NCBI RefSeq assembly: GCF_009649845.1
Contig: NZ_WJIE01000009.1
Location: 96,685 to 160,684 of the forward strand
From: Polyangium spumosum
Lineage (GTDB): Bacteria; Myxococcota_A; Polyangia; Polyangiales; Polyangiaceae
Length of the DNA stretch: 64,000 bases
Reading direction: 5' to 3'
Below, piece by piece: positions 17,289-52,744 of the stretch. The number at the start of each line of letters is the position of its first letter. The stretch's first letter is position 1. Under the pieces are notes generated by a model. That model was not told the origin of the DNA. It searched no databases and worked only from the letters and a program-made list of their open reading frames with translations. The translations under genes and the position numbers were made by a program.

Positions 17289-17295
17289 CGGGCCG

Positions 17296-22112: not shown

Positions 22113-22117
22113 CCGCG

Positions 22118-23197: not shown

Positions 23198-23358
23198 CGG
23201 GGGATCCGCGAGCGCGCCCCTACGAGGGTGTTGTGTTTTCGAGCCCGAGCACGGTAAGAAGGAAAATGCGCCAGAAGTAGACCCCGTGCGCGGGCGGTGT
23301 TTCGGGAAGTTCGCAAAGCCGCGGCTGCCGCCGCGAGAGCCGAGGAAGGGAGCCATCG

Positions 23359-23862: not shown

Positions 23863-23883
23863 GTCCGCGCGGAGGATACGAAC

Positions 23884-25386: not shown

Positions 25387-25492
25387 CGGGCTTCGCAGAT
25401 CGGTGTAGGGTGTAAATCATGGAGATCGCCGTCCCACGCGCGGATACTCGCGCGCGGGCGGCGATCATCGACGGGGACGCGGAGGATTTACG

Positions 25493-25987: not shown

Positions 25988-26023
25988 CCCGAGGACGTAT
26001 TCTCGTCCCAGGGGAGCGACAGA

Positions 26024-26500
26024 ATGGCGAAGGCGTGGGGATCCACGAGCGCGGGCAGGGTTCCCCTGTTCGATCGGCTGATCGACGAGAACCCTGCTCA
26101 AAAACAGGAAGTGGTCCCCTATTGCACCCTCGACCGAGACGGGCTGCGCGCCTCCGTGGCCCGCGAGCTCGGTCGAATCCTCGGCACCCGCAGCCCCATC
26201 TCCGGCGACGAGGCCCTCTCCCGACCGCGCACGACCATCGATTACGGGTTGCCCGACCTCGAGCTCGGCGGCCGTGCGCTCGTGCCGGAGGAGCTGCGCC
26301 GCCTCGTGCGCCTCGTGCAGAAGACGATCGAGGCGTACGAGCCGAGGCTCCAGAACGTACGCGTGGAGATCAAGCGACGCGAGGACGCGCCGCCGCACGC
26401 GCGGCTCGTCGTCGCGCTCACGGCGACGCTCGTCACGGACGAGGTGCGTGAGCCCCTCTCGTTCGAGGCGCCGCTCGAAGCGAGCTCGGGGGCCGCATGA
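26024..26500 (+). CDS. tssE: type VI secretion baseplate protein TssE (gp25-like)
   Basis: 158 aa; gp25/GPW-like pattern (LFDRLIDENP...TIDYGLPDL). 4-nt overlap with tssF. Confidence 0.85.
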   Translation: MAKAWGSTSAGRVPLFDRLIDENPAQKQEVVPYCTLDRDGLRASVARELGRILGTRSPISGDEALSRPRTTIDYGLPDLELGGRALVPEELRRLVRLVQKTIEAYEPRLQNVRVEIKRREDAPPHARLVVALTATLVTDEVREPLSFEAPLEASSGAA

Positions 26501-29324: not shown

Positions 29325-29377
29325 GGCTTGTCAACCGAGCGTGTGCCGGGATATCGTTCGACTGAGGCTTTTTTCGC

Positions 29378-32300: not shown

Positions 32301-33091
32301 CGGCCGTCCCGAAGGCGCCTCCGGGCGCCAAGGTGCCGGAAGCGGCCGCCAAGGTACCGGAAGCGGGCGCCAAGGTACCGGAAGCGGGCGCCAAGGTACC
32401 GGAAGCGGGCGCCGGTGTAGCGGCGCCGGCCGTCCCGAAGGCGCCTCCGGCCGCCAAGGTACCGGAAGCGGCTGCCAAGGTACCGGAAGCGGGCGCCAAG
32501 GTACCGGAAGCGGGCGCCGGTGTAGCGGCGCCGGCCGTCCCGAAGGCGCCTCCGGCTGCCAAGGTACCGGAAGCGGCCGCCAAGGTACCGGAAGCGGCTG
32601 CCAAGGTACCGGAAGCGGCTGCCAAGGTACCGGAAGCGGGCGCCAAGGTACCGGAAGCGGCTGCCAAGGTACCGGAAGCGGGCGCCGATGTAGCGGCGCC
32701 GGCCGTCCCGAAGGCGCCTCCGGCCGCCAAGGTACCGGAAGCGGGCGCCAAGGTACCGGAAGCAGCCGCCCCTGCGGCGGCGCCGGCCGTCCCGAAGGCG
32801 CCTCCGGCCGCCAAGGTGCCGGAAGCGGCCGCCAAGGCAGCGGTCCCGGGCGCCCCGGCGGCCGCCCCGAAGGCCCCCGAACCCCCGGCCGCGCCGGCCG
32901 ACGCCGCGCTCTTCGCCCCGAAGGCCGCGCCCGCGGCGCCCAAACCCCCGGCCGCGCCCGCGCCGCCCGCCGCTCCTTCCATGCCCGGCGCCGCGAAACC
33001 TCCCGCCGCGCCCGCCGCGCCCGCCGCCCCCAAGCCCGTCCTCCCCGGCGGCGGCAAATGGCCCGGCCCCGGCGGCAAGCCCGGCCCCTGA
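29378..33091 (+). CDS. large (1237 aa) Lys/Glu/Ala/Ile-rich all-helical protein of unknown function with C-terminal AKVPEA(A/G) tandem repeats and a Pro/Ala-rich tail; T6SS-operon-associated
   Basis: Starts 54 nt after the tssG stop on the same strand. About 900 aa of amphipathic-helix/coiled-coil-like sequence. Then about 25 perfect 8-aa repeats. Composition is atypical for this genome (high Lys/Ile). Confidence 0.75.
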   Translation: MTTEDQSQGATESIPSKLGKFAQEQIDKAEVTVTKGVSTVRDSTNGIIGKAEEQILKLNKALYETKNGISSGIDTAIKETEGQLKGITPELKKMGEDAIASAKSKLDGLVGEVEGKLESQKDSLVTTAKDQIQSAADAAKGKIDEIGELGEEQATKVLDAVKAQADTVEQKLGDIAGEIDGKIEAIGDDVRSKFEAAIAKVPDHDGAKAEMSANIDAVVGELREATKGSIDQARETLKSLVQQTDDTIKQTIGDVRRAIGEVPTRINQCAQDILAKVDDAIQKTIDEIANLARGLVARTAELLNEALLTITSTIDKLLADGFALVRGIKADLDRLLDQLLEQIRDLTLGTLEDVRKAANELLGTFEAECKKILQTMEDSVIVSVEELGGKMNASIKALQADLNLEADKIVRDLVAEGAKGHDDALADFISAGYEEDTSVIPKIRAKGEAAIKQIEAKTKAQGEKLIKDFELQATLLKPKIQAQGIKVIAQIAALGPKLAMQAMQIATSIASSIKDKGEAVKKTFEELQSTLVDAITKKIPDYLESCKKQIKAAADALVEAGKTFYEKTLADIMGAIKAAEQRFKQLASEMKDLIETQVLELVASIRRTVETSIQRFKDLGAAFEDKTNALVNDIPARILKLEQVARTAVESQIALAQGLANATKEDILLKARTALAEIKKAAYGVTAGISGDLGALKGTLAAIVPAGGGLDAAGAINLVVSGGLEQMVTSAANAASAAVTAGVNAAEAVNNAAEQAAAAMGAAGFEGASKALTDVLNQQMGEVRTEGEKAKNVIAAAKEKTMAVAKEANDACSEAAAAAQAEAAKVVEAAQSTGDAIKASADNLTKSLEKAKEIVKDAGKTAMQSMKEAQDARKGGDGAQAGAGAQAGAAAGADAGGADAAADAGGAEAAADAGGAEAAADAGGAEAPAAEAAAPEAAAPEAKAEVPGAKAEVPGAKAEVPGASKPEAGADVAAPAVPKAPPGAKVPEAAAKVPEAGAKVPEAGAKVPEAGAGVAAPAVPKAPPAAKVPEAAAKVPEAGAKVPEAGAGVAAPAVPKAPPAAKVPEAAAKVPEAAAKVPEAAAKVPEAGAKVPEAAAKVPEAGADVAAPAVPKAPPAAKVPEAGAKVPEAAAPAAAPAVPKAPPAAKVPEAAAKAAVPGAPAAAPKAPEPPAAPADAALFAPKAAPAAPKPPAAPAPPAAPSMPGAAKPPAAPAAPAAPKPVLPGGGKWPGPGGKPGP
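32200..32840 (+). repeat. intragenic perfect 24-bp tandem repeats (GCCAAGGTACCGGAAGCGGGCGCC...; about 25 copies, encoding AKVPEAGA/AKVPEAAA)
   Basis: Visible directly in the DNA; interspersed GVAAPAVPKAPPAAKVPEA variants. Likely copy-number variable. Confidence 0.85.
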
Positions 33092-33174: not shown

Positions 33175-33501
33175 GTGACCTCGAAGCTGGATCGTCACGC
33201 GCAGCAGCTCAGCGCGCTTGGCCATCCCGTTCGCCTTCAGATCCTGCGCTTCGTCGTGCAGGGGGGCGAAGGGGGGACGTCGGCGGGCGAGATCCAGGCG
33301 CATGTCGATCTGCCGGCGTCGACCTTGAGCCATCACCTGAAGCGGCTCGTCGAGGCGGGCCTGTTCACGACCCGCCTCGAAGGCACATTTCACTACTACG
33401 CCGCCGATTACGCGGCGCTCCTGGCCCTCACGGGTTACCTCTGGGAAGACTGCTGCAATCGTGGCAAAGGCGGCAAAGTCGTGAAGAGCGGCTGCTGCTG
33501 A
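33175..33501 (+). CDS. ArsR/SmtB-family metalloregulatory transcriptional repressor
   Basis: HTH region (LSALGHPVRLQILRFV...ASTLSHHLKRLVEAGL). Cys-rich C-terminus (CCNRG...SGCC), consistent with metal sensing. Confidence 0.85.
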   Translation: MTSKLDRHAQQLSALGHPVRLQILRFVVQGGEGGTSAGEIQAHVDLPASTLSHHLKRLVEAGLFTTRLEGTFHYYAADYAALLALTGYLWEDCCNRGKGGKVVKSGCC

Positions 33502-33566
33502 ACGGCCGCTTTTTTTGGGCCCCAAGGTTCGAGTTTTTTGGAAGCAAGAAGAAAAGGAGACTCCCC

Positions 33567-34070
33567 ATGAACGTCCTCAAGCCCCACGTGTCCCTGAACG
33601 TCACCAACATCGAGCAATCCGTGGCCTTTTACGAGAAGGCGTTCGGCGTCGCGGCGACGAAGCGGCGGGCCGGATATGCGAAATTCGATCTGCAGGTCCC
33701 CTCGCTCAACCTGACGATGCAGGAGGCCCCTCGCACGGGGATCAACGTCAGCCATTTCGGCGTGCAGGTCGCGAGCACCGAGGATGTCCTCGAAGCCAAG
33801 GCCCGCTTCGAGGCCCAGGGGCTGAAGACCCTCACGGAGGAGGAGACGTCTTGCTGCTACGCCGTGCAGGACAAGGTGTGGGTCGAGGATCCGGACGGCA
33901 ATTCGTGGGAGGTGTTCGTCGTGAAGGCGGACGCCGACGTGATGGGGACGTCCACGGCGCTGAACAAAGACGCGAGCGCGTGCTGCACGCCCGTCGGCCT
34001 CTCGGAGAAAAGCGAAGTGAAGAGCGAGGTCAAGCCGACGGCGTCGTCCTGCTGCGGCCCGAAGACCTGA
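33567..34070 (+). CDS. ArsI/CadI-family metalloenzyme (glyoxalase/VOC fold; C-As lyase or Cd-induced type)
   Basis: Strong resemblance to ArsI/CadI (LNVTNIEQSVAFYEKAFG...YAKF...SLNLTMQE...HFGVQVASTEDV...CCYAVQDKVWVEDPDGNSWEVF) with a C-terminal Cys-pair tail. Confidence 0.85.
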   Translation: MNVLKPHVSLNVTNIEQSVAFYEKAFGVAATKRRAGYAKFDLQVPSLNLTMQEAPRTGINVSHFGVQVASTEDVLEAKARFEAQGLKTLTEEETSCCYAVQDKVWVEDPDGNSWEVFVVKADADVMGTSTALNKDASACCTPVGLSEKSEVKSEVKPTASSCCGPKT

Positions 34071-34073
34071 GGC

Positions 34074-34463
34074 TCAAGGCACCTGCACGGTGACCTGCCC
34101 CGGGAACGAGATCTGAATCACCCCGCCCCACATACACATCAGCTTCGAGCTGTTGTTCAGCGCGGGCATGTTCGCCAGTAACACCGTCGGAGCACCCACG
34201 ATCCACGGCGCCGGCGTGTTCGGGATACACGGCATCGGCGTGAGCACCCCCATCGCCGCCGCCGTCGCCGCGGCCACCGTCGGGTTCGCCAGGCTCTGAC
34301 ACATCCCGAACGGCAGCACGTTCAGCATCGGCTTGCCGTCCATGATGTTCGCGAGTGGCCCCGGGGCGGTCATCGTCCGGTTTGCGGGCAGCACCGTGAG
34401 CGAGCTCGGCGCCACGCCGAAGCTGCATTGCATCATCGCCCCCATGCATACGTGCTGGCCCAT
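34074..34463 (-). CDS. DUF4280-family protein (PAAR-like T6SS spike-tip candidate)
   Basis: Internal Met start at 34463 (MGQHVCMGAMMQCSFGVAPSSLTVLPANR...TPMPCIPNTPAPWIVGAPTVLLANMPALNNSSKLMCMWGGVIQI), characteristic of DUF4280. Its start codon abuts the stop of the upstream MORN gene (ATG...TGA junction). The tracked ORF's first 27 codons are rejected. Confidence 0.8.
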   Translation of the reverse strand: MGQHVCMGAMMQCSFGVAPSSLTVLPANRTMTAPGPLANIMDGKPMLNVLPFGMCQSLANPTVAAATAAAMGVLTPMPCIPNTPAPWIVGAPTVLLANMPALNNSSKLMCMWGGVIQISFPGQVTVQVP

Positions 34464-34465
34464 CG

Positions 34466-35221
34466 TCAGCCTCCCGCGAGTTTGTTCACGATCTTGTCGA
34501 AGAAGGACGTCTCCTTCTCCTCGGACTTCGACTTCGGGAGGCACTTGTCGTCGTACTCGACCTCGCCGCGCTTCTCGCCGTCCTTGTACGTCGCCTTCGC
34601 CTTGAGCTTGCCGTTCACGTCGTAGCTGAAGGTGTCGCCTTGTTTCTTGCCGTCGTCGTAGGTGGCCCGCTCGCGCACCTCGCCGTCCGGGAAGTATTCG
34701 ATCACCTCCCCGTGCAGCTTGTCCGCCTTGTAGTGCGCTTTCCGCAGCGTATTGCCCTTGCCGTCGAGGAAAAGCGACTCCCCCTCGAGCTTGCCGTTCT
34801 TGTAGAACGAACGTACGACCTCGCCCCCCTGCTCGTCGAACGATTGAAACGGTCCGTTTTGCTTGCCCTTCTCGAAGAGCAACAACGTCCGCAGGCGCCC
34901 GTCCTCGTAGAGCCGCGTCGGCCCGTGTTGCTCGCCCTTCACGAACGTGACGACCTGCGAGAGCTTGCCGTTCTCGTCGAAGAGCTTCGTCTCGCCGTGC
35001 AGGAGGCCGTCCTCGAACGACGAGCGCTCGACCTCGCGCCCCTCCGGGTCGTACGTGATCGACAAACCGTGGAGTTTTCCCTTCTGATAACTCGCCCGGT
35101 GCGCGATCTGTTTTTCGGTCTCCCCGTACTGGACGAACTCGCCGTGCAGCGCGCCGTCTTCCATCTGGAACCGGGTGAGCAGCTTGCCGTTCTCGTCGCG
35201 CTCTTCGTGGTCGGTCGGCAT
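34466..35221 (-). CDS. MORN-variant (YwqK-like) repeat protein
   Basis: About 10 repeats of YxDGKLxGExxxYDENGKL, typical of the MORN_2/YwqK family. Between vgrG and the DUF4280 gene on the same strand. Confidence 0.8.
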   Translation of the reverse strand: MPTDHEERDENGKLLTRFQMEDGALHGEFVQYGETEKQIAHRASYQKGKLHGLSITYDPEGREVERSSFEDGLLHGETKLFDENGKLSQVVTFVKGEQHGPTRLYEDGRLRTLLLFEKGKQNGPFQSFDEQGGEVVRSFYKNGKLEGESLFLDGKGNTLRKAHYKADKLHGEVIEYFPDGEVRERATYDDGKKQGDTFSYDVNGKLKAKATYKDGEKRGEVEYDDKCLPKSKSEEKETSFFDKIVNKLAGG

Positions 35222-35234
35222 GAATGGCCTCGCC

Positions 35235-37235
35235 TCAGTTGATCTTCACCATGCCGCCCTTCAAGGTCAGCATGCCGCCGCCCTCCACGGCGGCCTGCGC
35301 GCCGCCCTTCGCCTTCAGCGCGATCGCGCCCTCGAGCGTCATGTTCGTCCCGCCCTTGGCCTTGAAATCGGTGCCGGCCTTGAGCGTCATCCCCGTCCCG
35401 CTCTCGGCCTTGAAGTCCGTGCCCGCCTTCATCGTGAAGGCCTGCTTGGCCTTGATCGTCACGCTCTTCGCCTCGATCACGAGGTCGCCGTCGACCTTGA
35501 TCGTGTAGTTCTTCGTCACCTTGTAATCGAGGTTCGCCTTGTTCGTGTGCGCCTCGTCCTTCGTGACCTCGAGCGTGCGTTTGCCCTTCACGGCGTGGAG
35601 CTCGTCGCCCTTGTCCACCTTGATCGTGCGGTTGCCCTTCGTGACGGTGAGCGTCTCGTCGCCCTCCTCGATCGTCACCTTCCGCTCGTTCTTGACGTTC
35701 ATCGCGACATCGTGGAGGACCTTCACGGTCCAGTCGTTCTCCACCTCGAAGAGCATGTCCTTCTGGGCGTGCGCGTAGAACTCCTCGTTATCCTTCTTGT
35801 CGTCGAAGCGCAGCTCGTTGCCCGCGTCGCCCTCCTTCGAGGAGCGGCTCAGGATCGTGCTCTTCGTCTGCATGTCCGGCAAACCGTAGGGCACCGTCTG
35901 CTCGGCGTTGTACACCGAGCCCGTCACGAGCGGCCGATCCGGGTCGCCGTCGATGAAGCTCACGACGACCTCCTGCCCGATCCGCGGCAAGAACCACGTG
36001 CCCCAGCTCTTGCCCGCCCAGGCCTGCACCACGCGCACGAAGCACGAGCTCTTGTCGTCCTTCGCGCCCTTGCGATCCCAGTGGAACTGGACCTTGATGC
36101 GCCCGTATTCGTCCGTCCACTGCTCCTCGCCGCTCTTGCCCACGACGACGGCCGTCTGCGTGCCCGGGATCGCCGGCTTCGGCGTGATACGCGGCGCGCG
36201 GTACGAGGTCTTCTTCGGGAACGCCTCGAAGGTATTCGTGTACCCCTCCTGGCTCGCCCGGTGCGAGACCGAGAGCAGCACCCAGTCGGTGTTCGCGTCG
36301 TCCCGATCATGCTCGTCGAGCTTGAACGCGTGCCCCGCCGTGAACGCGCGGCACGTGGACGTGCCCGCCAGACGCACGGCCCGCGCCTCCTCGGCCTCGA
36401 TGCGCAGCTTCGCCCGCGCGTCCCCCGGGCTCTTCTCGACGTGACCGCCCGGGTATTCGAAGAGCTCGAGCTTGCCCGATTCGCCCGCGACCTCCGCGAG
36501 GAGCGACGTGCTCGGCATCTCGAAGTTGTAATCCGTCGCCGCGTATTTGCCCGCGACGATCTCCTCCTCGAGCGTGCACTCGAGGACGGCGTCCTCGTCC
36601 GTCGACGTGGAGAACTGCTCGACGAAGCGCGCCTTGTCGAGGTTCGGGCACGCCGCGGCCGACGCGCTGTCGTCGGAGAGCACCATGACGTGCTTGCCGT
36701 CCTCGTGCGCGAAATAATAGTGGATGCCCTCGTCCTCCATGAGGCGCGAGACGAAATCGAGCGCGGTCTCCTGGTACTGCACGCAGTACGGGCGCGGCGT
36801 GTAGGAGCCCTTCAGCGAATCCTTGAAGTGCTCGCCCGACGAGAACCCGAGCTCCTGGAAGAGCTCCTTCAGGATGTCGGGCACGCTCTTCTCCTGGAAG
36901 ATGCGGCAATCGCTGGTCTTGCCGAGCAGCCATAACCACGGGTGCAGCTCCGCCCGGTAGCGCGTCTGCTTGCCGACCCGCCCCGCCTGGACGAACCGCG
37001 TGCAGATCCCGTGGATGAAGCGCGGCTTCTCCTTCGCCATGCCCCGCACGGTCAAGGTCACGCCCTTGCCGACGATCGCCTTGAAGTCGAGGGCCTTCTC
37101 CGGCGAGACGAGCTCGAGCTCGAAGCGGAACAGCCCCGAGATCCGCTCCTCCCCGTGCAGATCGACGAGGAGCACGGCGTCGGGTCCGAACGGCGTCGCG
37201 ATGCCGATGCCAAGTGTGCCCTGCGGATAAGGCAT
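35235..37235 (-). CDS. vgrG: VgrG (TssI) spike protein; no C-terminal effector extension
   Basis: 666 aa. gp27/gp5-like VgrG core (LFRFELELVS..., SVSHRASQEGYTNTFEAFP, WAGKSWGTWFLPRIGQEVVVSFIDGDPDRPLVTGSVYNAEQ). C-terminal gp5 beta-helix repeats (TLEVTKDEAHT...VTKNYTIKVDGDLVIEA...). Confidence 0.9.
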   Translation of the reverse strand: MPYPQGTLGIGIATPFGPDAVLLVDLHGEERISGLFRFELELVSPEKALDFKAIVGKGVTLTVRGMAKEKPRFIHGICTRFVQAGRVGKQTRYRAELHPWLWLLGKTSDCRIFQEKSVPDILKELFQELGFSSGEHFKDSLKGSYTPRPYCVQYQETALDFVSRLMEDEGIHYYFAHEDGKHVMVLSDDSASAAACPNLDKARFVEQFSTSTDEDAVLECTLEEEIVAGKYAATDYNFEMPSTSLLAEVAGESGKLELFEYPGGHVEKSPGDARAKLRIEAEEARAVRLAGTSTCRAFTAGHAFKLDEHDRDDANTDWVLLSVSHRASQEGYTNTFEAFPKKTSYRAPRITPKPAIPGTQTAVVVGKSGEEQWTDEYGRIKVQFHWDRKGAKDDKSSCFVRVVQAWAGKSWGTWFLPRIGQEVVVSFIDGDPDRPLVTGSVYNAEQTVPYGLPDMQTKSTILSRSSKEGDAGNELRFDDKKDNEEFYAHAQKDMLFEVENDWTVKVLHDVAMNVKNERKVTIEEGDETLTVTKGNRTIKVDKGDELHAVKGKRTLEVTKDEAHTNKANLDYKVTKNYTIKVDGDLVIEAKSVTIKAKQAFTMKAGTDFKAESGTGMTLKAGTDFKAKGGTNMTLEGAIALKAKGGAQAAVEGGGMLTLKGGMVKIN

Positions 37236-37348: not shown

Positions 37349-38191
37349 ATGACGTTCTTCCGGACGGGCCACGGTCTCTTCCAGTTCGGGAGGCCGAAGC
37401 GCCTCGACAGGCACGGGATCCTCTCGTTTTTGCGCGGCATCGCGCTCGATCGCCGCGGCATGCTGGAGCTGCGGCGTATGCTCGCCGAGGAGCTGCATCG
37501 CAGCTCGATCCACAACCTGCGCGACGATGTCGTGATCGAGCAGCTCGCGGAGCGGTACCTGCGCGGCTCGCTCACGCTCGTCCACGTGCGCCCGCCCGAC
37601 GTTGGGCTCGAGCTCGAAGGTTTCCTCGTCGAGGGCGCCGACGTCACGCCGCTCGTCGGCCCCAAGAACGAGGCCGGGGACCTGCGCCCCGCGCCCGAGG
37701 TCCCGCCGGAGTATCCCGTCCTCGCGCGGGTCGAGTCCGATCAGATCGTCGACTCCACGCTGAAGCTCTGCGCGAAGCTCGCGGACCTGCTCTTCGGGGC
37801 GTTTGGCCTGCAAAAACGCCCGTCGACCCTGGCGAAGGAGCTCGTGTTGCTCGCGGCCGAAGAGGCGAGCGGCGTGAAGCTCGCGAACACGAAGGTCGAC
37901 CTCGGCCTCGGCCTGCAGCTCCACCCGCAAGGGAAGGTCCTGCTGCCCGATCCGCAGGTGAAGGACGCGTACGTCGCCGCGGCGGCCGAGATCGCCGCGG
38001 GCCCGCGCCCGGCCGCGAAGGGCCTCATCGATCTGATGCTGCCGCTCACGCGGGTCGATACGAAGCGCCGCTTCGAAAACCCCGTCGGCGCCGGGCTGGT
38101 GAAGAGCGAGTCGGTCGAGGAAGCGGCCCCTCCGCCCGCGCCCGCGCCCGAGGACAAACCGGCGCCGAACCGCTGGATCTTCTCGCTCTGA
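37349..38191 (+). CDS. hypothetical protein (280 aa), divergent from vgrG
   Basis: Internal Met at 37349 (MTFFRTGHGLFQFGRPKRLDRHGILSFLRG...) with balanced composition and a Pro-rich C-terminus. The competing minus ORF 37058..38344 is Arg/Gly-rich junk. No recognisable domain. Confidence 0.5.
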   Translation: MTFFRTGHGLFQFGRPKRLDRHGILSFLRGIALDRRGMLELRRMLAEELHRSSIHNLRDDVVIEQLAERYLRGSLTLVHVRPPDVGLELEGFLVEGADVTPLVGPKNEAGDLRPAPEVPPEYPVLARVESDQIVDSTLKLCAKLADLLFGAFGLQKRPSTLAKELVLLAAEEASGVKLANTKVDLGLGLQLHPQGKVLLPDPQVKDAYVAAAAEIAAGPRPAAKGLIDLMLPLTRVDTKRRFENPVGAGLVKSESVEEAAPPPAPAPEDKPAPNRWIFSL

Positions 38192-38205: not shown

Positions 38206-38988
38206 TCAACGCACGACGCGTAACGCGCCGTCGACCTTCGCCACGTAGACGGGGATCTGGAGCTGCGAGCCGTCCTTGTCCGGCACCGTCTGGAGCAGCG
38301 GGCGCTTCGGCTTTCGCATGAGCTCCCAGATCCGGCCCTCGCACATCGAGACCGGCAGGATGTCCGTCGCCCCGAACGCGAGGTCCATCGGGCCCGGCAG
38401 CAGCTTGCCCTGCACGAACTCCACGAAGTCGTCGCGCATGCGCGCCTCCGTCTCGTAATACGCTTGCCCGAAATCGCGTATCTTCGGCGCGAACTCCTTC
38501 ACGAGCCCCACCACGTCCGACGCGGCGAAGAGGTCCCGCAGGCGCGTCGCGTAGGCGAGCAGCGGCTCCGGATCCTCGATCGGCTCCGCTTCCCGGAGGA
38601 GCTCGGGGAACGCGGGGCCCTCGTTGTCGAATTCGAACGAGAGCTGCAAAGGGATCGCCGGGACCTGCCCGGCGAGCGCTTTTTGTACGTCGATGGAGAG
38701 CACGACGTCGCCGGCCTCGTCCGGCGCCACGATGTCCCCGGCCTTGTACGCCGACACCGAGCCGGTGATGTCGATGTCGAGCGGCGAGCTCATCCCTTTC
38801 CGCGTGATCGTCGGGAGCGCCTGGATGCCGAGCACGTTCCCCTTGCCGACGAGGAGCTGGTTCACCGGCGGCGCCACGCTGATCGGCGCCCGCGCGTCCA
38901 CGGCGAGGAGCTGAAAGCCGTTCAGCGTGACCCGCGCGAGGCAGGCGCGCAGCGACAGGTTCAGGTGGAAGATCGGTTTGTCCTGCAT
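38206..38988 (-). CDS. hypothetical protein (260 aa), immediately downstream of the giant toxin gene; candidate immunity/adaptor
   Basis: Balanced composition; 4-nt gap to the upstream gene's stop. No signal peptide or known domain recognised. Confidence 0.6.
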   Translation of the reverse strand: MQDKPIFHLNLSLRACLARVTLNGFQLLAVDARAPISVAPPVNQLLVGKGNVLGIQALPTITRKGMSSPLDIDITGSVSAYKAGDIVAPDEAGDVVLSIDVQKALAGQVPAIPLQLSFEFDNEGPAFPELLREAEPIEDPEPLLAYATRLRDLFAASDVVGLVKEFAPKIRDFGQAYYETEARMRDDFVEFVQGKLLPGPMDLAFGATDILPVSMCEGRIWELMRKPKRPLLQTVPDKDGSQLQIPVYVAKVDGALRVVR

Positions 38989-38992
38989 GCGC

Positions 38993-41900
38993 TCACTTGC
39001 ACTTGTCCACGAGTTCCTTGCACGGATCGATGTAGCTGGCCGACATGATCTTATCGAGCTCCTTGTTCACGAAGCTCAGGAAGGTCTTGTCGTCGATCCA
39101 GTCGCGCGCCCAGTCGCGCGTGCCGATGATGTCGAGCCGCTGCCGGATGTCGTGCGCGAGCCCCTCGATCGAGCTCGAGTCGCGGAAGATGTCCTTGCGG
39201 GCGTCGATCTTCGCCGCGAGCGTCTGCGCGATCTTCTCGGTGGACCATTGCGTGTCCGGTGTCCACGCGCTCCCGGACTCCGTGAACACCCGGATGTTCA
39301 GCCCGTCGGTGAGTTTGTCCTCGAGGATCTCCTCGATCTGGCTCCGCGTGATGAAGGGGGCCGTGTAGGGCTCGTCCGGCCATTCGAAGTCCCCGAGGTC
39401 CTCGGCTTCGATGAACGTCTGCTGCGAGACGTGGTTGCCCAGCCAGCCGCCCGGGCCCACCGACGCCTTGATCTTCCCCGCGAGCCCCGTCCAGCTCATG
39501 GAGCTCTTCATCGAGAAGCCTTCCCGGCTGTGGATCTGGAGCTTCCCCTGGAATTCGAACCCGCTCTCCAGCGTGGCCTCGAATTCGACGCAGCTCCCTG
39601 CCTGGACACGCGCCCCCACGGCGCCCGCGATGCTCAAGGTGAACGGGATCGCGACGGTGGCGTCCACGCCCGGGCTGACGCGCTCGATCTCGTAGTTGAT
39701 GGAGACGCCCCCCTCGATCTTCGCGAAGAGCTGCGCCTTGAAGCTGCAGCTCGCGATCCCGACGCCGATCTCGGCGGAGGCCGAGAACAGGTTGAACTGG
39801 AAGATCAGCTTCGCCCCGGCGTACGCCCGTTCGTCCTTGTATTCCTTCTGCTGCCATTCGAGGTTGAAGACGCCCTGGAGGACCTGGAACTCCCACTGGG
39901 CATACCAGCCGATCTTGGGGACCGCGTCCTGGATGCCCTTCATGATCTTGAGCGCGTGCTGCACGAGCCCCACGATGCCCAGGATCGGCTGGATGACGTC
40001 GGCCGCGTTGACGAGCGACTTGCCATCCATCGTGATGGTGACGCCCTCCCCGAAGGGTTTTTTCTCCGCCCCCTTCTTGGGTTTTTCCCAGCCGGCTGGC
40101 TCCTCGAGCGACTCTCCTGCGTCGACCCACGCGAGGCCCTTGCTGCCGTCGGAGAGCGTGACCTCGTCGAGCTTCTCCCCGAGCTTCGAGCCCATCTTGG
40201 CGCTGCGCACCTTGGGCATTTTGATCGCGAGCGCGAGCTTGTTCGGCGCGTAGACCGCGATGGTGAGGGGCTTTTCGAATCCCTCGACCTTGTACTCCGT
40301 CGCCGCGGTGAAGGCCTTCCAGAACGTGGCGCCGAGGATGTTGTGGCCCAGGGTGCCCTTGAACGCGACCTTGACGTCGTATTGCGTGTAGCCCTCGCCC
40401 GCGGCCTTCCCCTGCACCGTGACCTTCTCGCCCCCGCGCGACACCGTGATCGCGCTCGGCGAAGGCTTCGCGCCGCCCCGGTAGAGGAGCGTCACCACGT
40501 CCTCGAGCGTCTGCGCGTCGGGGACCACCTCGAAGCGGGCCACGTTTTTCACGCGGCTCTTTCGGCTCGCGAGCTCGTGCGCGCAAAAAACGACGAGCTC
40601 GCTCTCCCCCGCGCCCGTCGTCGCCCCGCCCGACGTCGAGCCGGCCGTCTCGCCCTCCTCGGACGTCTCCTCCGTCGCCTCGTTCTCCGCCGGCGGCGCC
40701 TGCAAAAGCGAGAGCGTGCGCCAGTGCTCGATGAGGCCGATCGGGTGCAGGTGCCAGACCTTGTCCTTCGAGGGCAAACCCGCGCTCGATGCGTCTCCCC
40801 AGAAGCCGAGCTTCTTGATGTACTCACGCGTCGTCGCGAGCGACGCGTCGTCGAGGTTCCACGGCGGCCCCTTCAATCGATCGAGCCCCGGCACCTCGCC
40901 GGCCCACTCCGTCGGATGCAGGCACGCGATCCGCCGCAGCTTCTCGGCGATCGCGGGGTCCTTCAAGGCCGCCTTGATCTCCGCCGCCGAGACCTTCCCG
41001 TCCTTGTTCTCGTCGACGAGCCCGAGCAGGCTCGGCGCGTCGCAGAGCCCATCCTGGCTGAATTTGCCGGGCTCCTCGATCCGCTGCCAGCGCGGCCAGT
41101 CGTACGCGAAGAGGACCTTCGTATCCTTGTCGACTTCGATCCAGCCCTTCCCCCCGCCGAAATCCACCTCTTGCCAGACCTTGCCCTCCTTGTCCTTGAA
41201 GACCCGCGCGTCCGAGGCGGGCAAGATCTCGGTGAAGATCTCCGCCGCGTTCGAGCCCGCCCCGTCCTCGAACACGACCGCGCCGTCGGGTTTTTCCTTG
41301 GAAAGGACGGGCAACGCGCTCTTCAGCGTGTAGCGCGACGTCTTGCCGTCCCAGTCCCCGAGCAGCTCGCGCTTCGTCCAGCCCGTGCGTTTCTCCTGCT
41401 CCGCTTTCGGGAGCACATACCGCACCTGGCGGTCGCTCTCGCCCTTCTGCGCGACCCAGTACACCTTCGCGCCCTTCGGCGCGTTGATTTCAATCGTCGC
41501 GCCCCCGCCGGGCTCGGTCGTGAGCGTCGCGAGTGGCGCCGCCAGCGTATACGCCGCGCTCCCCTGGTCATACGCCCCGAGCAGCTCGCGCTTCGTCCAT
41601 CCCACGGCCTCGCTGCAAGCGACCTTGCGCAGATCGCCGGGCGGCTGCTCCACGAGGCTGAGGCGTGCGCCGGCGGGCCAGTCGACCTTCACCTCGGGCG
41701 GCGTGACGTTCTTGCGTGTCTTGAACTTCGTGCCCGCCGCGATCTGCAAGAGCCCCGGGCCGCCCTTGTCGCCCTTGGGGTTCTTCATGAACTCGACGTC
41801 GCCCGTCAGCACCTCGAAATGGGTCGTCGCCGGCCGCGTGAAGAACACGCCCGGATACCCGAGAATGGCGCCCGCCGTGACCGGGATCTTGCACGCGACC

Positions 41901-44017
41901 ACCTGATCGAACTTCTCGGGCTCGAGCTTGCACTCGTATTTGATGTTCGGGTCGCCCTCGCCGCCCACGTAGACCCAGCCGCCGCCCGAGAGCTCGTGCC
42001 AGCCGGTCCCGATCTTCCCCCCGGGCGCGACCGCGTTCGGGTCCTTGAAGCTCACCTCCTCGCCGAGCTTGGCCACCCGCAAGACCTTGCTCCCCCGGCC
42101 CGTCTCGCGCACGTTGAGCCCCCCCGAATCCTCGGTGGTCGCAATCGTGAACTTGTGCTTCTTGAACATCACGGGCGGGTTCTTCTTCTGCGCGTCGGTG
42201 TACTCCTCGAAAGGCAAGAGGTGCATCACCAGCGAGAAGAGCTCGAGCTTCGCGCCCTTCGGCGTGTACCGCTCGTGCCGGACGAGCACGAAGCCATTCG
42301 AATACCGCATCGGCTCGCCCGCGAGCTCCACCTCGAGCGCCTTCTTGTTGATGCGATACGCCACGATGTCGCCGTCGGCGATGGCCTGGAGCGCATCCGC
42401 GCCCGCGTCGAGGTGCACGCCCCCGTGCCAGAAGTTGTTGGCCCCGATGGGGAAGAACCCGCCCTCGCCCCCCTCGTTCAGCGAATAATGGGCCTCGGCG
42501 TCCTTGCCGACGATCGGGAGGCGGATGCTCGCGCTCGCGCTCGCAGGCGTGAGGAAATCCCCCTCGACGAGGGTGTAAATGAGCGAACGCGTGCCGTCCT
42601 TGGCCGGCTTGCCGGAGAGCTCGTTCTGGAGCGTGCCCTTGATCGAGGTGTCCGCCTCGATCTTCTTGATGAAATCGACGTAGCTCTTGATCCCCGCGAT
42701 CACCTGGCAGCCCGCGGACCAGGCGCGGCTGCGGTCCGCGGCGACCAGGCCCGTGTCGCCGCCGTAATGGATGTTGATGTCGCCCGCGTCGTACGCCGTC
42801 GCGTGGGTGTCGCCGACCGCGCCGACCTGCTCCTCGTCGCCGACGAGCGCCGTCCGTACGGTCGGGTCCGGCCGGAGCGCGCGATAGTTCTTCCCGCTCA
42901 GGTCCTTCCCCGTCATGCCGTCCTTCAGGCTGACGTGTGTCCCGTACCGCGAGATCCCGTGATTGCCGAGCGCATACTTGTGTTGCCCGAGCAAGAGCAC
43001 CGACTGGCTGCCCTTGATCGTCCACTCCGTGGTGCACTGGTAGAGCGCGACCTTCTTCTGCCCCGCCGTCGTCTTGTAGACGAGGAACATGCAATCGTCG
43101 TACTTCGTGTTCGTGCTCTGGACCGGCTTCTTCTCCTTGTGATCGAAGCCGCGCGCCGCGAGCAGGTTCACGCGCCCGTTCTCGTCCTGGAAGTCGTACG
43201 CGCTTTTCCCCTCGTTGCCGAACCGCTTCTGCGCCCGCTTCCACACCTCGCGCAGGTGGTCGTAGAGCACGTCCTCGGGCATCGTGGAGAGGTCGAACTG
43301 CGTCGTCGGCTCGCGATACACCACGAGCGGCGCGTCGTCGTCGTCGTCGTCCTCCGCCCCCGTGCCGCCGGCCTTCTTCAGGAAATCCGAGCGATCGAGG
43401 ATGCGCCAGTTGTACCCGCCGCGTTGCGCCACCGCGAACGAGCCGTCCGCGTTCCGGGGCTTCTGGTTCTTGAGGTTGGTATTGTCCCTCCAGTAATCGA
43501 GGTCGTGGATGAGCGCGCAGAAGCCCGGGTAATCGTTGTCCTTGACGCAAGCGACGAGCCGCGGGTGCTTCGTCGAGAGGTCCCCGCGATACGCGAGGTC
43601 GACGAGCACCTCCTTCATCGGCGTCGGGTACTTCTCCCAGTCGCCGCCGTAGTCCGCGACCCTCGTCTTCGCCTTCTCGACGTAGGCGGGATAAATCTTC
43701 TGGTAGAGCGTCTTCGCGACGTCCTTCGAGATCGTCGGCAGGCTCGCGACGTTGTCCGCGACCCACTTCTTGGCCGCGTCCCCCTTCTTCCCCGCGCCAT
43801 TGCTCAGCTTCTCCGCGTCGGCCGCGGACACGCCCGCCGCGACGAGGTCGGCCTTGACCACCGCCTTCGTGCGGCCCCCCATGTCGTAACCGGCCCCGAG
43901 CGTCACCCCGGACGCGGCCGAATCGGGCCAATGTACCTCGAGGATGTCCTTGGTGTTGCCCCCCTCGACGGCGAACGTGAGCTCGGAGAAATGGGGGAAG
44001 ACGTGGGTGCCGCTCAT
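38993..44017 (-). CDS. giant (1675 aa) putative polymorphic toxin / T6SS cargo effector: lysozyme-like (GH24-like) N-terminal domain, EF-hand-like loop, hydrophobic beta-rich C-terminal domain
   Basis: ATG at 44017 (MSGTHVFPHF...), an internal Met of tracked ORF 38993..44140. N-terminal region resembles phage lysozyme (E...D...T spacing, then KEVLVDLAYRGDL...LVACVKDNDYPGFCALIHDLDYW). EF-hand-like loop DENKDGKVSAAEIKAAL at about 40955-41014. Duplicated GWTKRELLG modules. C-terminal Gly/Ala/hydrophobic segments. Lys-rich, lower-GC composition than neighbours. Confidence 0.75.
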   Translation of the reverse strand: MSGTHVFPHFSELTFAVEGGNTKDILEVHWPDSAASGVTLGAGYDMGGRTKAVVKADLVAAGVSAADAEKLSNGAGKKGDAAKKWVADNVASLPTISKDVAKTLYQKIYPAYVEKAKTRVADYGGDWEKYPTPMKEVLVDLAYRGDLSTKHPRLVACVKDNDYPGFCALIHDLDYWRDNTNLKNQKPRNADGSFAVAQRGGYNWRILDRSDFLKKAGGTGAEDDDDDDAPLVVYREPTTQFDLSTMPEDVLYDHLREVWKRAQKRFGNEGKSAYDFQDENGRVNLLAARGFDHKEKKPVQSTNTKYDDCMFLVYKTTAGQKKVALYQCTTEWTIKGSQSVLLLGQHKYALGNHGISRYGTHVSLKDGMTGKDLSGKNYRALRPDPTVRTALVGDEEQVGAVGDTHATAYDAGDINIHYGGDTGLVAADRSRAWSAGCQVIAGIKSYVDFIKKIEADTSIKGTLQNELSGKPAKDGTRSLIYTLVEGDFLTPASASASIRLPIVGKDAEAHYSLNEGGEGGFFPIGANNFWHGGVHLDAGADALQAIADGDIVAYRINKKALEVELAGEPMRYSNGFVLVRHERYTPKGAKLELFSLVMHLLPFEEYTDAQKKNPPVMFKKHKFTIATTEDSGGLNVRETGRGSKVLRVAKLGEEVSFKDPNAVAPGGKIGTGWHELSGGGWVYVGGEGDPNIKYECKLEPEKFDQVVACKIPVTAGAILGYPGVFFTRPATTHFEVLTGDVEFMKNPKGDKGGPGLLQIAAGTKFKTRKNVTPPEVKVDWPAGARLSLVEQPPGDLRKVACSEAVGWTKRELLGAYDQGSAAYTLAAPLATLTTEPGGGATIEINAPKGAKVYWVAQKGESDRQVRYVLPKAEQEKRTGWTKRELLGDWDGKTSRYTLKSALPVLSKEKPDGAVVFEDGAGSNAAEIFTEILPASDARVFKDKEGKVWQEVDFGGGKGWIEVDKDTKVLFAYDWPRWQRIEEPGKFSQDGLCDAPSLLGLVDENKDGKVSAAEIKAALKDPAIAEKLRRIACLHPTEWAGEVPGLDRLKGPPWNLDDASLATTREYIKKLGFWGDASSAGLPSKDKVWHLHPIGLIEHWRTLSLLQAPPAENEATEETSEEGETAGSTSGGATTGAGESELVVFCAHELASRKSRVKNVARFEVVPDAQTLEDVVTLLYRGGAKPSPSAITVSRGGEKVTVQGKAAGEGYTQYDVKVAFKGTLGHNILGATFWKAFTAATEYKVEGFEKPLTIAVYAPNKLALAIKMPKVRSAKMGSKLGEKLDEVTLSDGSKGLAWVDAGESLEEPAGWEKPKKGAEKKPFGEGVTITMDGKSLVNAADVIQPILGIVGLVQHALKIMKGIQDAVPKIGWYAQWEFQVLQGVFNLEWQQKEYKDERAYAGAKLIFQFNLFSASAEIGVGIASCSFKAQLFAKIEGGVSINYEIERVSPGVDATVAIPFTLSIAGAVGARVQAGSCVEFEATLESGFEFQGKLQIHSREGFSMKSSMSWTGLAGKIKASVGPGGWLGNHVSQQTFIEAEDLGDFEWPDEPYTAPFITRSQIEEILEDKLTDGLNIRVFTESGSAWTPDTQWSTEKIAQTLAAKIDARKDIFRDSSSIEGLAHDIRQRLDIIGTRDWARDWIDDKTFLSFVNKELDKIMSASYIDPCKELVDKCK

Positions 44018-44058
44018 GATGCCACCGGACGTGGGATGATACACGTCGGCGCGGCGGA

Positions 44059-45603
44059 TCACTCCATCAAAAGACCCATCCGCGCGAAGCGCAGGAGCTT
44101 CTGCTCGGTGATCTCGGCGAAGACGTCGGCCGACACGCAAGGCGCGCCGTTCATCTCCACCGACACCTCGCCGCGCCGCGCCTCCTCGAGCGCGGCCTCC
44201 GTGAGCGCCGCGGCGTCACGTGTCCCGTCCATCCGCGCGAGGATCACCCGATCGAAGCTGTCGACCTGCACGCCCTCGTGCAGGAGCGTCGTGCAAAACG
44301 GGCTGCCCACGCTCGCCTGGTAACGCGCGAACGAAAAGGCCCGCGGGCGCTCGCTCACCCCACGCGCGACGGGCTTCGGCGAGGCCCAGAGCCGGAGCGC
44401 GTTTTTCGTGTACAACCCGAGCAGGTTCCGCGCGAGCCGCGCCCGCGCCTCCCCCTCGAACGCGGCGAGCCCGAGCCTCTCGCCCGCCTCCCAGGCGAGC
44501 GCGTCGAACGGCAAGCCCCCCGGCGCGCGCGCCGCGAGCGCGACGAGCGCGGCCTTGAGCGTCGCCTGATCCGTGGAGATCGTGCCGCCCGGCCCGAGGA
44601 ACGTCTCCTCGACGCCCTCGCCGAGGTTCGGGCTCGTCGCGCCCGGCGTGAGCGGCGAGGCGACGACGAGCGGAAAGAGGCGATCGACCGAGACACGGCG
44701 CGAGATCGCCACGTCGTCGCGGCAGAGGACGGCGCGGCGAAAGCAGCGGAGCTCGAGCAGGTCGAGGGATTGCTGCATGGCCACGACGTCCCCGCCCGAC
44801 CGCGCGCGTACGGCCTCCGCGGCGGCGGGGCCGAGGCGCTCGGGGAGGACGAGCGGGACGTGCGCGTCGGTGACGAAGGCGAGCCCGGCGTCCTGCATGT
44901 CGCGGGCGAAGTCGGAGAAATACTCGGCGCGGTTGTACGCGACGAGGTGCTCGCCGAGCAGGTAATCGTCCGCGAGCTGGCCGAGGGTCTGGAGCTCGCT
45001 CGCGAGCCAGGCGCGCGCCGGATCGGCGGCGAGGGTCTCGGCGGCGCCGAGGAACTGCAAAAAAGCGCGCGCCTTCACGACGCGCTCGGCGGCCGATCCT
45101 TCCGCGCCGACCTCGCGGCGGAGCATGTCGCGCAAGGCGCCGCGCAGGTGCCAGCCGGGGAGGGTATTGAAGCTGATGTAGGCGAGCCCGTGGGGCGCGA
45201 GGTGCCTGCGGACGAGGCGTCGCAGGGCCGCGCGCGCGTCGTCGGGGATCCACGAGTACACGCCGTGACAGACGATGTAATCGAAGGAGGCGGGCTCGTC
45301 CTCGAATTCGCGGACGTCGGCGAGGTGGAGGGCGAGGTTCTGGAGCCGCGCGCCCTCGGCGTGCTTGCGGGCGACGGCGAGCGAGTCTTCGGCGCGGTCG
45401 AGGGCGACGAAGCGGCTCTCGGGGAAGGCGGCGGCCATGGGCAGGACGTTGCCGCCGGTGGCGCAGCCGATCTCGAGGAGGCGGCAGCGAGCGGGCGGAG
45501 CGGGCCGGAGGCCGAAGAGGGCGCCGACCGCGCCGAGGTGGTCGGGGTGTGTCTCGGCGAAGGGCAGGGCCTCGTAGAAATAGTCCTCGTTCGGGGGGGC
45601 CAA
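44059..45603 (-). CDS. class I SAM-dependent methyltransferase with C-terminal methyltransferase-regulatory-like domain (start uncertain, possibly TTG at 45603)
   Basis: C-terminal 510 aa of tracked ORF 44059..46536. SAM-binding motif region (RLLEIGCATGGNVLPMAAAFPESRFVALD...FDYIVCHGVYSWIP). The 5' part of the tracked ORF is an off-frame read through a repeat region. Confidence 0.7.
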   Translation of the reverse strand: MAPPNEDYFYEALPFAETHPDHLGAVGALFGLRPAPPARCRLLEIGCATGGNVLPMAAAFPESRFVALDRAEDSLAVARKHAEGARLQNLALHLADVREFEDEPASFDYIVCHGVYSWIPDDARAALRRLVRRHLAPHGLAYISFNTLPGWHLRGALRDMLRREVGAEGSAAERVVKARAFLQFLGAAETLAADPARAWLASELQTLGQLADDYLLGEHLVAYNRAEYFSDFARDMQDAGLAFVTDAHVPLVLPERLGPAAAEAVRARSGGDVVAMQQSLDLLELRCFRRAVLCRDDVAISRRVSVDRLFPLVVASPLTPGATSPNLGEGVEETFLGPGGTISTDQATLKAALVALAARAPGGLPFDALAWEAGERLGLAAFEGEARARLARNLLGLYTKNALRLWASPKPVARGVSERPRAFSFARYQASVGSPFCTTLLHEGVQVDSFDRVILARMDGTRDAAALTEAALEEARRGEVSVEMNGAPCVSADVFAEITEQKLLRFARMGLLME

Positions 45604-45709
45604 GCGTTTTCTCCGGGAGGGCGGGCACCTTGGCGAGATCGGGGTGCGGGCGCAAGTGTTTGCCTTCCCGGGCCAGCCTGCCCCATGCTGCTCGCCCGTC
45701 GGTCTGCGT

Positions 45710-46609
45710 ATGGATGGTCTTTCCCTGGTCCTTCTCGCCGTGCTCGCGGCGCTCGTGCTGGTGATCGTGGTGCTCCTGCAGTCGCGAGGCGCGCTCGCGC
45801 GGGAGCTCGCGGCGGCGCGGGAGGAGGCGGCGAAGAGCGGAACGGCACTGGCGAAGAGCGGAACGGAGCCGGCGAAGAGCGGAACGGAGCCGGCGAAGAG
45901 CGGAACGGCACTGGCGAAGAGCGGAACGGAGCCGGCGAAGAGCGGAACGGAGCCGGCGAAGAGCGGAACGGAGCTGGCGAAGGCGCGGGAGGAGCTCGCG
46001 AAGAGCGGAACGGAGCTGGCGAAGGCGCGGGAGGAGGCGGCGAAGAGCGGAACGGAGCTGGCGAAGGCGCGGGAGGAGGCGGCGAAGAGCGGGGAGGCGC
46101 TGGCGAAGACGCGGGAGGCGCTTGCGAAGACCGGGGAGGACCTGGCGAAGACGCGGGAGGCGCTTGCGAAGAGCGGGGAGGAGCTGGCGAAAGCGCGGGA
46201 GGACCTGGCGAAGAGCGAGGAGGCGCTGGCGAAGACACGCGAGCAGCCCGCGAAGCGTGAAGGGGACCTCGTGGCCGCGATGCAACGCGTCGAGGCGCTC
46301 TCCCGCGCCCTGCGGCAAGCCGAGCAGGAGGCCGAGGCGCTGTCCATCCAGAAGGACGCGTTCGCCGCGGAGGCGCGCGCGCTGCGCGACGAGCTCGAGC
46401 GGCGCAAGAAGGCCGCCGAGCAAGCCGCCGCCGCCGAGGGCAAGCCGCTCCCCACGCAGAAGCCGAAGGCCCGGCCGTCGAAGCCGCCGGAGCCAATCAC
46501 GGCATTTTTCTGTCTGATCTGCGGGGAGGGGAGCAACGGGGCGAAGCCGCACCGCTGCCTCGTCGAGGAGGAGGAGCAGCGGAAGAAGGTGGCGATGGGG
46601 AGGAAGTAG
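45710..46609 (+). CDS. membrane-anchored coiled-coil repeat protein with C-terminal Cys motif (300 aa)
   Basis: Met at 45710 (MDGLSLVLLAVLAALVLVIVVLL = TM helix). Heptad/14-aa repeats AKSGTEP / ELAKAREEAAKSGT. C-terminal FFCLICGEGSNGAKPHRC. Both strands are open through the repeats; the plus frame is preferred because of the TM helix and coiled-coil logic. Confidence 0.55.
   Translation: MDGLSLVLLAVLAALVLVIVVLLQSRGALARELAAAREEAAKSGTALAKSGTEPAKSGTEPAKSGTALAKSGTEPAKSGTEPAKSGTELAKAREELAKSGTELAKAREEAAKSGTELAKAREEAAKSGEALAKTREALAKTGEDLAKTREALAKSGEELAKAREDLAKSEEALAKTREQPAKREGDLVAAMQRVEALSRALRQAEQEAEALSIQKDAFAAEARALRDELERRKKAAEQAAAAEGKPLPTQKPKARPSKPPEPITAFFCLICGEGSNGAKPHRCLVEEEEQRKKVAMGRK
45820..46260 (+). 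repeat. intragenic 21-bp tandem repeats (GGCGAAGAGCGGAACGGAGCC; about 20 copies, partly degenerate)
   Basis: Seen directly in the DNA; encodes the AKSGTEP / LAKAREE repeats. Confidence 0.8.
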
Positions 46610-46697: not shown

Positions 46698-52640
<5,943 letters not shown>

Positions 52641-52744
52641 CGAACCTCGACCTCCACGCGCGACACACGCCGGGGAGCTACGGACGCGGCCAGGCCGCAA
52701 GGAAAAGGAGTTATTGTGACCATGCTAAGGCCGGCGACGCCCCG

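Follow-up and report, generated by a model that had tools for sequence, protein, structure and literature searches.

Type VI secretion system (T6SS) effectors that are built around WHIX, a bipartite T6SS secretion domain named for its WHxxxH motif, have been described recently (Fridman et al., PLoS Biol 2025, PMC12135965). Peptidoglycan-targeting domains flank WHIX on one side or on both, and WHIX alone is non-toxic; capping of the VgrG C-terminal tail is its proposed role, and docking has been demonstrated for Awe1/VgrG4 (PMC12135965). More than 98% of the genomes with WHIX encode a T6SS, and most WHIX effectors have a periplasmic immunity gene on the side of each toxic domain (PMC12135965). 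We have analyzed a stretch of 64,000 nucleotides (the window) from the myxobacterium Polyangium spumosum, which carries on its minus strand a gene (38993..44017; protein WP_153822643.1) that probably encodes a WHIX cargo effector of subclass II (multi-blade) for the P. spumosum T6SS, with three candidate payloads and a partner for its C-terminal module. The order of domains is pesticin-like muramidase, YkuD-fold domain, WHIX, low-complexity linker and a module of 534 amino acids (aa). Beyond the contents of the WHIX catalogue, the locus offers a putative second N-terminal enzyme, an apparently LytM-like WHIX and an unannotated C-terminal module/partner family that spans three phyla.

The open reading frame (ORF) runs from an ATG at 44017 to 38993 (1674 codons plus stop) and matches WP_153822643.1, named 'pesticin C-terminus-like muramidase' by NCBI, with 100% identity and coverage. 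Coding on the minus strand is further backed by a third-position GC content (GC3) of 0.92, by a Pfam match and by 25 homologs; the ORF reported in an earlier sequence-only reading of this DNA is therefore real, with a length of 1674 aa. An antisense ORF (38927..44323, plus strand) is longer, and we regard it as a shadow typical of high-GC DNA. The effector starts with MSGTHVFPHFSELTF, and we found no signal peptide or hydrophobic segment at its N terminus. A phmmer search of PDB sequences with the full-length protein gave no match at E ≤ 1, and Pfam searches with five separate segments (E ≤ 10) gave weak EF-hand matches and nothing more. The sole match in NCBIfam was XopAW, a calcium-binding effector (12.8 bits, at the EF loop described below), and a literature search found no characterized myxobacterial homolog. 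The features of the effector gene given below all lie on the minus strand.

WHIX and the domains that precede it

The central part of the protein (aa 496–1099; 40721..42532) is a WHIX domain. As reference we used the validated effector Awe1 (Aeromonas jandaei, 862 aa), whose sequence was transcribed from the model file of the WHIX paper. BLASTP aligns aa 496–606 with Awe1 160–302 (30% identity, E 7e-12), and the WHxxxH motif, WHGGVH (aa 530–535; 42413..42430), is aligned with WHGGIH at positions 197–202 of Awe1. Collinear matches pair Awe1 507–545 with aa 711–740 and Awe1 681–692 with aa 1086–1097 (KVWHLHPLSLLD versus KVWHLHPIGLIE). The conserved motif that ends WHIX, KVWHLHP (aa 1086–1092; 40742..40762), is identical to Awe1 681–687. 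Comparison with Awe1 by hhalign gave a probability of 99.1% (E 1.1e-18) for WHIX region 1; the end of region 2, aligned with Awe1 597–693, reached 92.7% (E 4e-7). A full-length ortholog with 65% identity (P0004; WP_281319639.1, Polyangium sp. y55x31) is the 'Lysozyme-like' example in Table 2 of the WHIX paper and appears in its tree and N-terminal-extension files, and a second relative (P0019; WP_272421927.1) also belongs to the published set (PMC12135965). The accession of the P. fumosum relative is not in the tree file of that paper (PMC12135965). Judged by its sequence, the protein is a member of the published WHIX effector class and, since so close an ortholog is already in the WHIX paper, it is not new in kind.

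WHIX appears to be a degenerate LytM/M23 fold whose core is split by variable, SH3b-like inserts, whence its bipartite look, and the WHxxxH motif appears to occupy the place of the LytM/M23 HxxxD zinc motif. WHIX itself is not described as LytM-like in PMC12135965. Motifs of active M23 enzymes, HxxxD and HxH, are not found in the WHIX core, which has the incomplete set HxxxH and T-T-H-F-E. This incomplete catalytic set and the insert-split fold distinguish WHIX from LytM/M23 domains, including degenerate ones such as those of EnvC, SpoIIQ and DipM. Unlike LytM/M23 peptidases, WHIX would serve docking, by analogy with the published domain that lacks toxicity of its own (PMC12135965).

Two features that the sequence-only reading had taken for middle domains in their own right are indeed present, and both fall inside WHIX. 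GWTKRELLG occurs at aa 806 and 879 as part of a 47-aa repeat (43% identity, E 5e-10 by internal BLAST), the two copies lying in the insert between the WHIX regions (aa 796–915; 41273..41632). The string DENKDGKVSAAE (aa 1002–1013; 40979..41014), located where the terminal helical part of WHIX begins, is a perfect canonical 12-residue EF loop (D-x-N-x-D-G-x-V-x-x-x-E) between predicted helices and is kept in the 13 closest WHIX relatives. The motif is unpaired and scores 16.6 bits with Pfam EF-hand_1, under the cut-off of 25.4; the corresponding stretch of Awe1 contains no canonical EF loop.

The protein has in common with Awe1-type subclass II ('double-blade') WHIX effectors the WHxxxH motif, the bipartite WHIX and the terminal KVWHLHP, as well as peptidoglycan-targeting domains at the N terminus, a further domain after WHIX and a gene located by vgrG in a T6SS genome. 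It is about twice the size of Awe1 (1674 versus 862 aa) and has two putative enzymatic domains before WHIX, where the paper files the N terminus of the ortholog as 'Lysozyme-like' only (PMC12135965). Unlike that of Awe1, its WHIX holds ∼210 extra residues (repeats and SH3b-like inserts) and a canonical EF-hand loop, and its C-terminal payload is a 534-aa module that forms a stand-alone effector family elsewhere. The hosts of described WHIX effectors are mostly Gamma- and Betaproteobacteria, and the present gene extends this 'double-blade' class, reported in 2025, to a predatory myxobacterium.

The N terminus (aa 1–205; 43403..44017) is confirmed as a predicted lysozyme-fold muramidase, in line with the lysozyme-like head of the sequence-only reading. 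Pfam Pesticin (PF16754) covers aa 32–163 (E 1.7e-9, 38.3 bits against a gathering cut-off of 25.8), and the candidate triad E18, T39 and D45 is invariant in the 16–17 homologs that have the muramidase region. Thr-39 and Asp-45 keep the T-x5-D spacing of pesticin, with a Glu about 21–25 residues upstream; equivalence to the catalytic residues E178, T201 and D207 of pesticin (PMC9927483) was judged from spacing and conservation, not from structure superposition. Vibrio cholerae VgrG3cp, V. fluvialis TssI2 and Yersinia pestis pesticin have the same Pfam domain with T-x5-D and an upstream Glu (PMC9927483, PMC9620997), and for VgrG3cp and TssI2, as for the P. spumosum effector, cleavage of periplasmic glycan strands after T6SS delivery is predicted. 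VgrG3cp and TssI2 carry the domain as a C-terminal extension of VgrG and pesticin carries it as a bacteriocin domain, whereas here it forms the N terminus of a cargo effector, whose gene, unlike those of the comparison systems, has no adjacent immunity gene of the lysozyme-inhibitor type.

A putative second N-terminal enzyme, overlooked in the sequence-only reading, follows. Residues 240–495 (42533..43300) are assigned a YkuD (L,D-transpeptidase) fold and contain the catalytic-type motif H417-x16-S434-A-G-C437; its His, Ser, Gly and Cys do not vary among 19 sequences. Pfam YkuD does not match this segment at E ≤ 10, and a profile of the domain, run against PDB sequences, picked up a chance primase match but no YkuD protein; a word-index search with the profile returned 7 proteins only. 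The domain also occurs together with peptidoglycan-binding domains in relatives of 340–390 aa. Its fold and motif resemble those of the Salmonella Tlde1 family, T6SS effectors that act on peptidoglycan peptide stems and share a YkuD fold with an H-x(14–17)-[S/T]-x-G-C motif (PMC9638812). Unlike Tlde1, the YkuD part of the effector has neither detectable Tlde1 sequence similarity nor a Pfam YkuD match and is one domain of a multi-domain protein, and we saw no periplasmic immunity gene of the Tldi type.

The C-terminal module and its partner gene

A low-complexity linker (aa 1100–1140) leads to the uncharacterized C-terminal effector module (aa 1141–1674; 38996..40597). These 534 residues are a self-standing family, T6SS-linked elsewhere, that had escaped the first reading. 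Within the first homolog set the module is confined to the closest relatives, and other WHIX relatives have different ends, such as an NlpC/P60-like motif in P0012. A HMMER scan of 1.84 billion representative proteins, by comparison, returned 370 clusters (50% identity) with the module, 118 of them below E 1e-30. Most of these proteins are 550–780 aa long, the module being nearly the entire protein, and no member has a Pfam family for it. Fusions among 64 scanned members comprise N-terminal PAAR (3), LysM (5) and M23 (1); C-terminal to PAAR, the module stands in the toxin position of specialized effectors. A Minicystis protein combines a GH25-like domain, WHIX and the same module: this ∼1600-aa protein of Minicystis rosea (CP016211.1; locus L009, 6893..11710, plus strand) has the GH25-like motif GIDISHGQGNIDW, the call being judged from this sequence motif, then WHIX (NFWHGGIH) and the module, and its gene is followed by the partner. 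With P0010, which has a different C terminus, at least two WHIX-type effectors occur in M. rosea.

The AlphaFold2 model of the module is confident (predicted local distance difference test 86.6, predicted template modeling score 0.70) and consists of an immunoglobulin (Ig)-like β-sandwich, an amphipathic helix, eight strands (six of them of 19–26 residues) and a helical end domain. The six long strands show strict hydrophobic/polar alternation across 64 family members. Conserved positions are mostly Gly, Pro and aromatic, and the few invariant polar residues (E276, Q289 and R330) sit on the polar face. The most hydrophobic 19-aa window of the whole effector (aa 1334–1352, Kyte-Doolittle mean 1.66) lies just before the sheet. 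The Gly/Ala/hydrophobic, β-rich C terminus of the sequence-only reading exists in part, at aa ∼1372–1546, whereas helical, polar sequence makes up the last ∼120 aa. The module shows weak similarity to an OmpA-like β-barrel; it differs from the 8-stranded OmpA-type barrels of outer membranes in having no sequence similarity to them, no signal peptide and no significant Foldseek match, and in that its barrel-like part is flanked by the Ig-like sandwich and the helical domain and T6SS delivery is proposed. Searching PDB sequences with the family profile gave nothing. Homology to the alternative C termini of P0010 and P0011 is not supported (hhalign probability 1.6%).

The gene for a 260-aa protein (38206..38988, minus strand) starts 4 nucleotides past the effector stop, as read directly from the junction. 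In 9 of 9 informative loci, which come from three phyla, the gene directly downstream of the module encodes a homolog (29–86% identity); a locus is informative when at least ∼1.5 kb of downstream sequence is available; L014, which ends after 1 kb, is uninformative. These loci come from three other Polyangium genomes, a second M. rosea locus, a stand-alone metagenome member and metagenome-assembled genomes (MAGs) of Anaeromyxobacter, Cytophagia, Bacteroidales and Fibrobacteria. PAAR is encoded immediately upstream of the module gene in all five non-myxobacterial genome loci, and VgrG within 10 kb of it in six loci; across Myxococcota, Bacteroidota and Fibrobacterota, the module has genes for PAAR or VgrG as neighbors. 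The 260-aa gene, called an orphan in the sequence-only reading, is a dedicated, conserved and translationally coupled partner, which upholds the pairing that the same reading had proposed, and its product is a candidate immunity protein. P0010 and P0011, with their different C terminus, are followed by 250-aa proteins that are 27–29% identical to the 260-aa protein. The partner profile matched nothing in PDB or Pfam, and 19 of 19 homologs are annotated as 'hypothetical'.

Tentatively, the module and its ∼260-aa partner may be a widespread, unnamed T6SS toxin-immunity family in which an OmpA-like β-barrel, with E276, Q289 and R330 in a polar interior and a hydrophobic outside, would insert into the target-cell membrane; we regard this as a possibility rather than as the expected outcome. 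If true, it would be the first β-barrel-type membrane toxin delivered by a T6SS. The C terminus is at most a candidate pore former.

Some module loci of other genomes contain additional genes. The Anaeromyxobacter locus L012 has two tandem paralogs of the partner (6780..7637 and about 7716..8540, both minus strand) with clear signal peptides; they diverge from the toxin gene, come without a toxin of their own and look like orphan immunity genes. A Fibrobacterota MAG (L013; 11694..12800, plus strand) encodes between toxin and partner a 368-aa membrane protein of internally repeated layout that has three hydrophobic segments, and another (L014; 4558..5106, minus strand) a 182-aa membrane protein just after the module gene. 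Both membrane proteins could be additional immunity or accessory proteins.

Proposed delivery by the T6SS and competing explanations

The window contains a T6SS core (15941..33091, plus strand) with DotU, IcmF, ImpA_N, VipA, VipB, Hcp, gp25 and TssF. The order of genes on the minus strand is MopE-repeat protein, methyltransferase, effector, 260-aa gene, vgrG, MORN_2 protein and DUF4280 protein, with a plus-strand ORF of ∼280 aa before vgrG. The spike module formed by the last three genes lies 1 kb beyond the partner gene and consists of vgrG (35235..37235; Phage_GPD E 4.6e-97, Gp5_trimer_C, Phage_base_V), whose spike protein is the likely effector carrier, a 251-aa MORN_2-repeat protein (34466..35221; E 3.6e-21), which also follows vgrG in other Polyangium, and a PAAR-like spike tip of the DUF4280 family (34074..34460; PF14107, E 1.2e-35). 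Contrary to what had been claimed, the effector gene does not diverge from vgrG: vgrG (37235..35235) is downstream on the same strand, with the 260-aa gene and the plus-strand ORF in between.

P. fumosum and P. jinanense have the same vgrG-adjacent synteny, as does a metagenomic relative, and the payloads differ. The slot between methyltransferase and vgrG is taken in P. jinanense (P0019) by a WHIX effector with Peptidase_M74 and PG_binding_1 and in the metagenomic relative (P0013) by one with Pesticin, Peptidase_M15_3 and PG_binding_1; neither locus has the C-terminal module or the 260-aa gene. Such swapped payloads on WHIX in sister genomes indicate that the system is modular, as polymorphic toxins are. 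The proposal of a new polymorphic T6SS cargo effector with a peptidoglycan-hydrolase warhead, encoded next to a vgrG/PAAR-like module, holds for effector, warhead and context, and fails on newness, the WHIX class being already described. The vgrG/MORN_2/DUF4280 trio is kept in all Polyangium loci examined, and VgrG is ∼94% identical between species where the adjacent effectors are 65–69% identical or swapped.

We propose that the central WHIX docks on the C-terminal tail of the neighboring VgrG, by analogy with Awe1/VgrG4, and that the spike would carry the entire 1674-aa protein into a neighboring Gram-negative cell. The muramidase would cut glycan strands in the target periplasm, and the YkuD-fold domain may attack or miswire peptide stems by L,D-carboxypeptidase or exchange activity, following the example of Tlde1. 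The C-terminal module would act as a third, non-enzymatic toxic payload, probably on the membrane through its amphipathic β-sheet or an OmpA-like barrel, and the 260-aa protein would bind and neutralize it. Three candidate payloads on one WHIX chassis bear on the cargo capacity of the VgrG tip and on the engineering of WHIX as a delivery chassis. Module and partner make up a large family that Pfam and effector catalogues have missed, in three phyla including those with the Bacteroidota-type T6SS, and defining the activity of the module would add a toxin class.

Several observations weigh against this account. The similarity to Awe1 in WHIX region 2 is moderate and weak in its middle, where our protein is ∼210 residues longer, and its accession is not in the tree file of the WHIX paper (PMC12135965). 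No vgrG occurs within 10 kb of the relatives P0010 and P0011. The module has no invariant residues of catalytic type, and a Foldseek search of its model against PDB gave no match at E ≤ 0.001 and no pore-forming toxin. Unlike in published WHIX effectors, no signal-peptide gene flanks the effector gene, the upstream neighbor being the methyltransferase gene and the downstream one the partner, which is without an export signal; no periplasmic immunity candidate stands beside the muramidase and YkuD domains, unlike in most WHIX effectors. Two peptidoglycan-targeting domains without an adjacent periplasmic immunity gene raise the question of how Polyangium protects itself. No signal peptide was found in the partner or its cognate homologs, in which the conserved core begins at the start. 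The partner looks cytoplasmic, yet fusion of the module to LysM or M23 in some members hints at periplasmic action. We infer the toxicity and target of the module from its context, and the secretion, binding and activity of the effector are predicted.

The sequence-only reading saw in this gene a novel, horizontally acquired polymorphic toxin with a lysozyme head, a middle with an EF hand and a C terminus that forms pores, and in the 260-aa protein a classical immunity protein. Its lysozyme head agrees with our data; the strict alternation in the six long strands of 64 family members, the hydrophobic peak at aa 1334–1352 just before the sheet and the tight coupling of the partner gene also speak for it. 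The assignment to WHIX removes the novelty in kind, and with the EF loop and the repeats belonging to WHIX the proposed middle domain falls away. The GC content of the effector gene (66.2%) is 3.7 points under that of the window (69.9%), and the claim that the gene is Lys-rich is borne out (8.4% of residues). The dip is seen also in vgrG (65.6%) and in the MORN gene (61.9%), and the neighboring genes have an equal GC3, so the lower GC comes from a Lys/Asp/Glu-rich amino acid composition and is no signature of foreign origin; synteny is moreover kept across Polyangium species. Foldseek found no pore-forming toxin, and the partner looks cytoplasmic, whereas the immunity proteins to known T6SS pore formers are, to our knowledge, membrane proteins. 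We therefore consider this combination of claims rather unlikely as a whole.

Less likely still is that the module is a second loading or adaptor module for PAAR/VgrG and the 260-aa protein its cytoplasmic chaperone, leaving the two N-terminal enzymes as the only warheads. All cognate partners are without signal peptides, as are T6SS chaperones and adaptors, stand-alone module genes directly follow PAAR genes, and the Gly, Pro and aromatic conservation without catalytic-type residues and the lack of a match to any toxin structure would fit such a role. WHIX already supplies a loading domain, however, and the 3 of 64 members with the module C-terminal to PAAR have it in the position of a toxin. 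The order of a large gene before a small one is that of effector and immunity genes, and known T6SS adaptors are usually encoded upstream of their effector. The tandem signal-peptide paralogs of L012, which have no toxin, follow an orphan-immunity pattern that would make no sense for a cytoplasmic chaperone and argue against a purely chaperone role of the partner.

It is very improbable that the gene encodes a housekeeping or predation-related cell-wall hydrolase that is exported by another route and is near vgrG incidentally: the NCBI name says merely muramidase, P0010 and P0011 lie among housekeeping genes, and there are small YkuD-fold relatives with peptidoglycan-binding domains, but the effector has no N-terminal signal peptide or hydrophobic segment, it contains WHIX with its near-constant link to T6SS genomes (PMC12135965), and at least four Polyangium genomes, between which payloads are swapped, keep its place by vgrG.

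Other genes of the locus

The ∼280-aa ORF (37349..38191, plus strand) matches no Pfam family and is without a signal peptide. In four Polyangium-type loci its place is invariably between effector slot and vgrG and its orientation invariably divergent from vgrG, to which it is linked whatever the payload; P. fumosum has two tandem paralogs, and 429-aa and 333-aa versions occur elsewhere. We rejected it as an immunity gene on the grounds of the missing signal peptide and this vgrG linkage. Two further genes (33175..34070, plus strand), for a regulator of the ArsR family and a protein of the glyoxalase/VOC family whose tail is rich in Cys, lie between the T6SS core cluster and the vgrG module, the ends of which converge here, and are apparently unrelated to the effector. 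They too were considered as immunity genes and rejected, as they have no signal peptides and are vgrG-linked or unrelated.

Upstream of the effector, an S-adenosylmethionine-dependent methyltransferase with a PKMT winged-helix domain (44059..46536, minus strand) keeps its position in other Polyangium genomes. Its upstream in-frame extension (45700..46536, minus strand) is a repetitive SSRAFASSVPLFA-like string, possibly a DNA tandem repeat, and is overlapped by a 321-aa ORF on the plus strand (45644..46609) with high GC3 and no Pfam match. A 2000-aa protein (46698..52700, minus strand) that contains 15 repeats of a putative metal-binding motif of the MopE type (Pfam E 5.6e-104) follows and is found near the methyltransferase in other Polyangium loci. 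The T6SS core cluster ends with a 1237-aa ORF (29378..33091, plus strand), which lies in a stretch with GC of up to 0.79 and shows only sub-threshold matches to apolipoprotein-like helical repeats.

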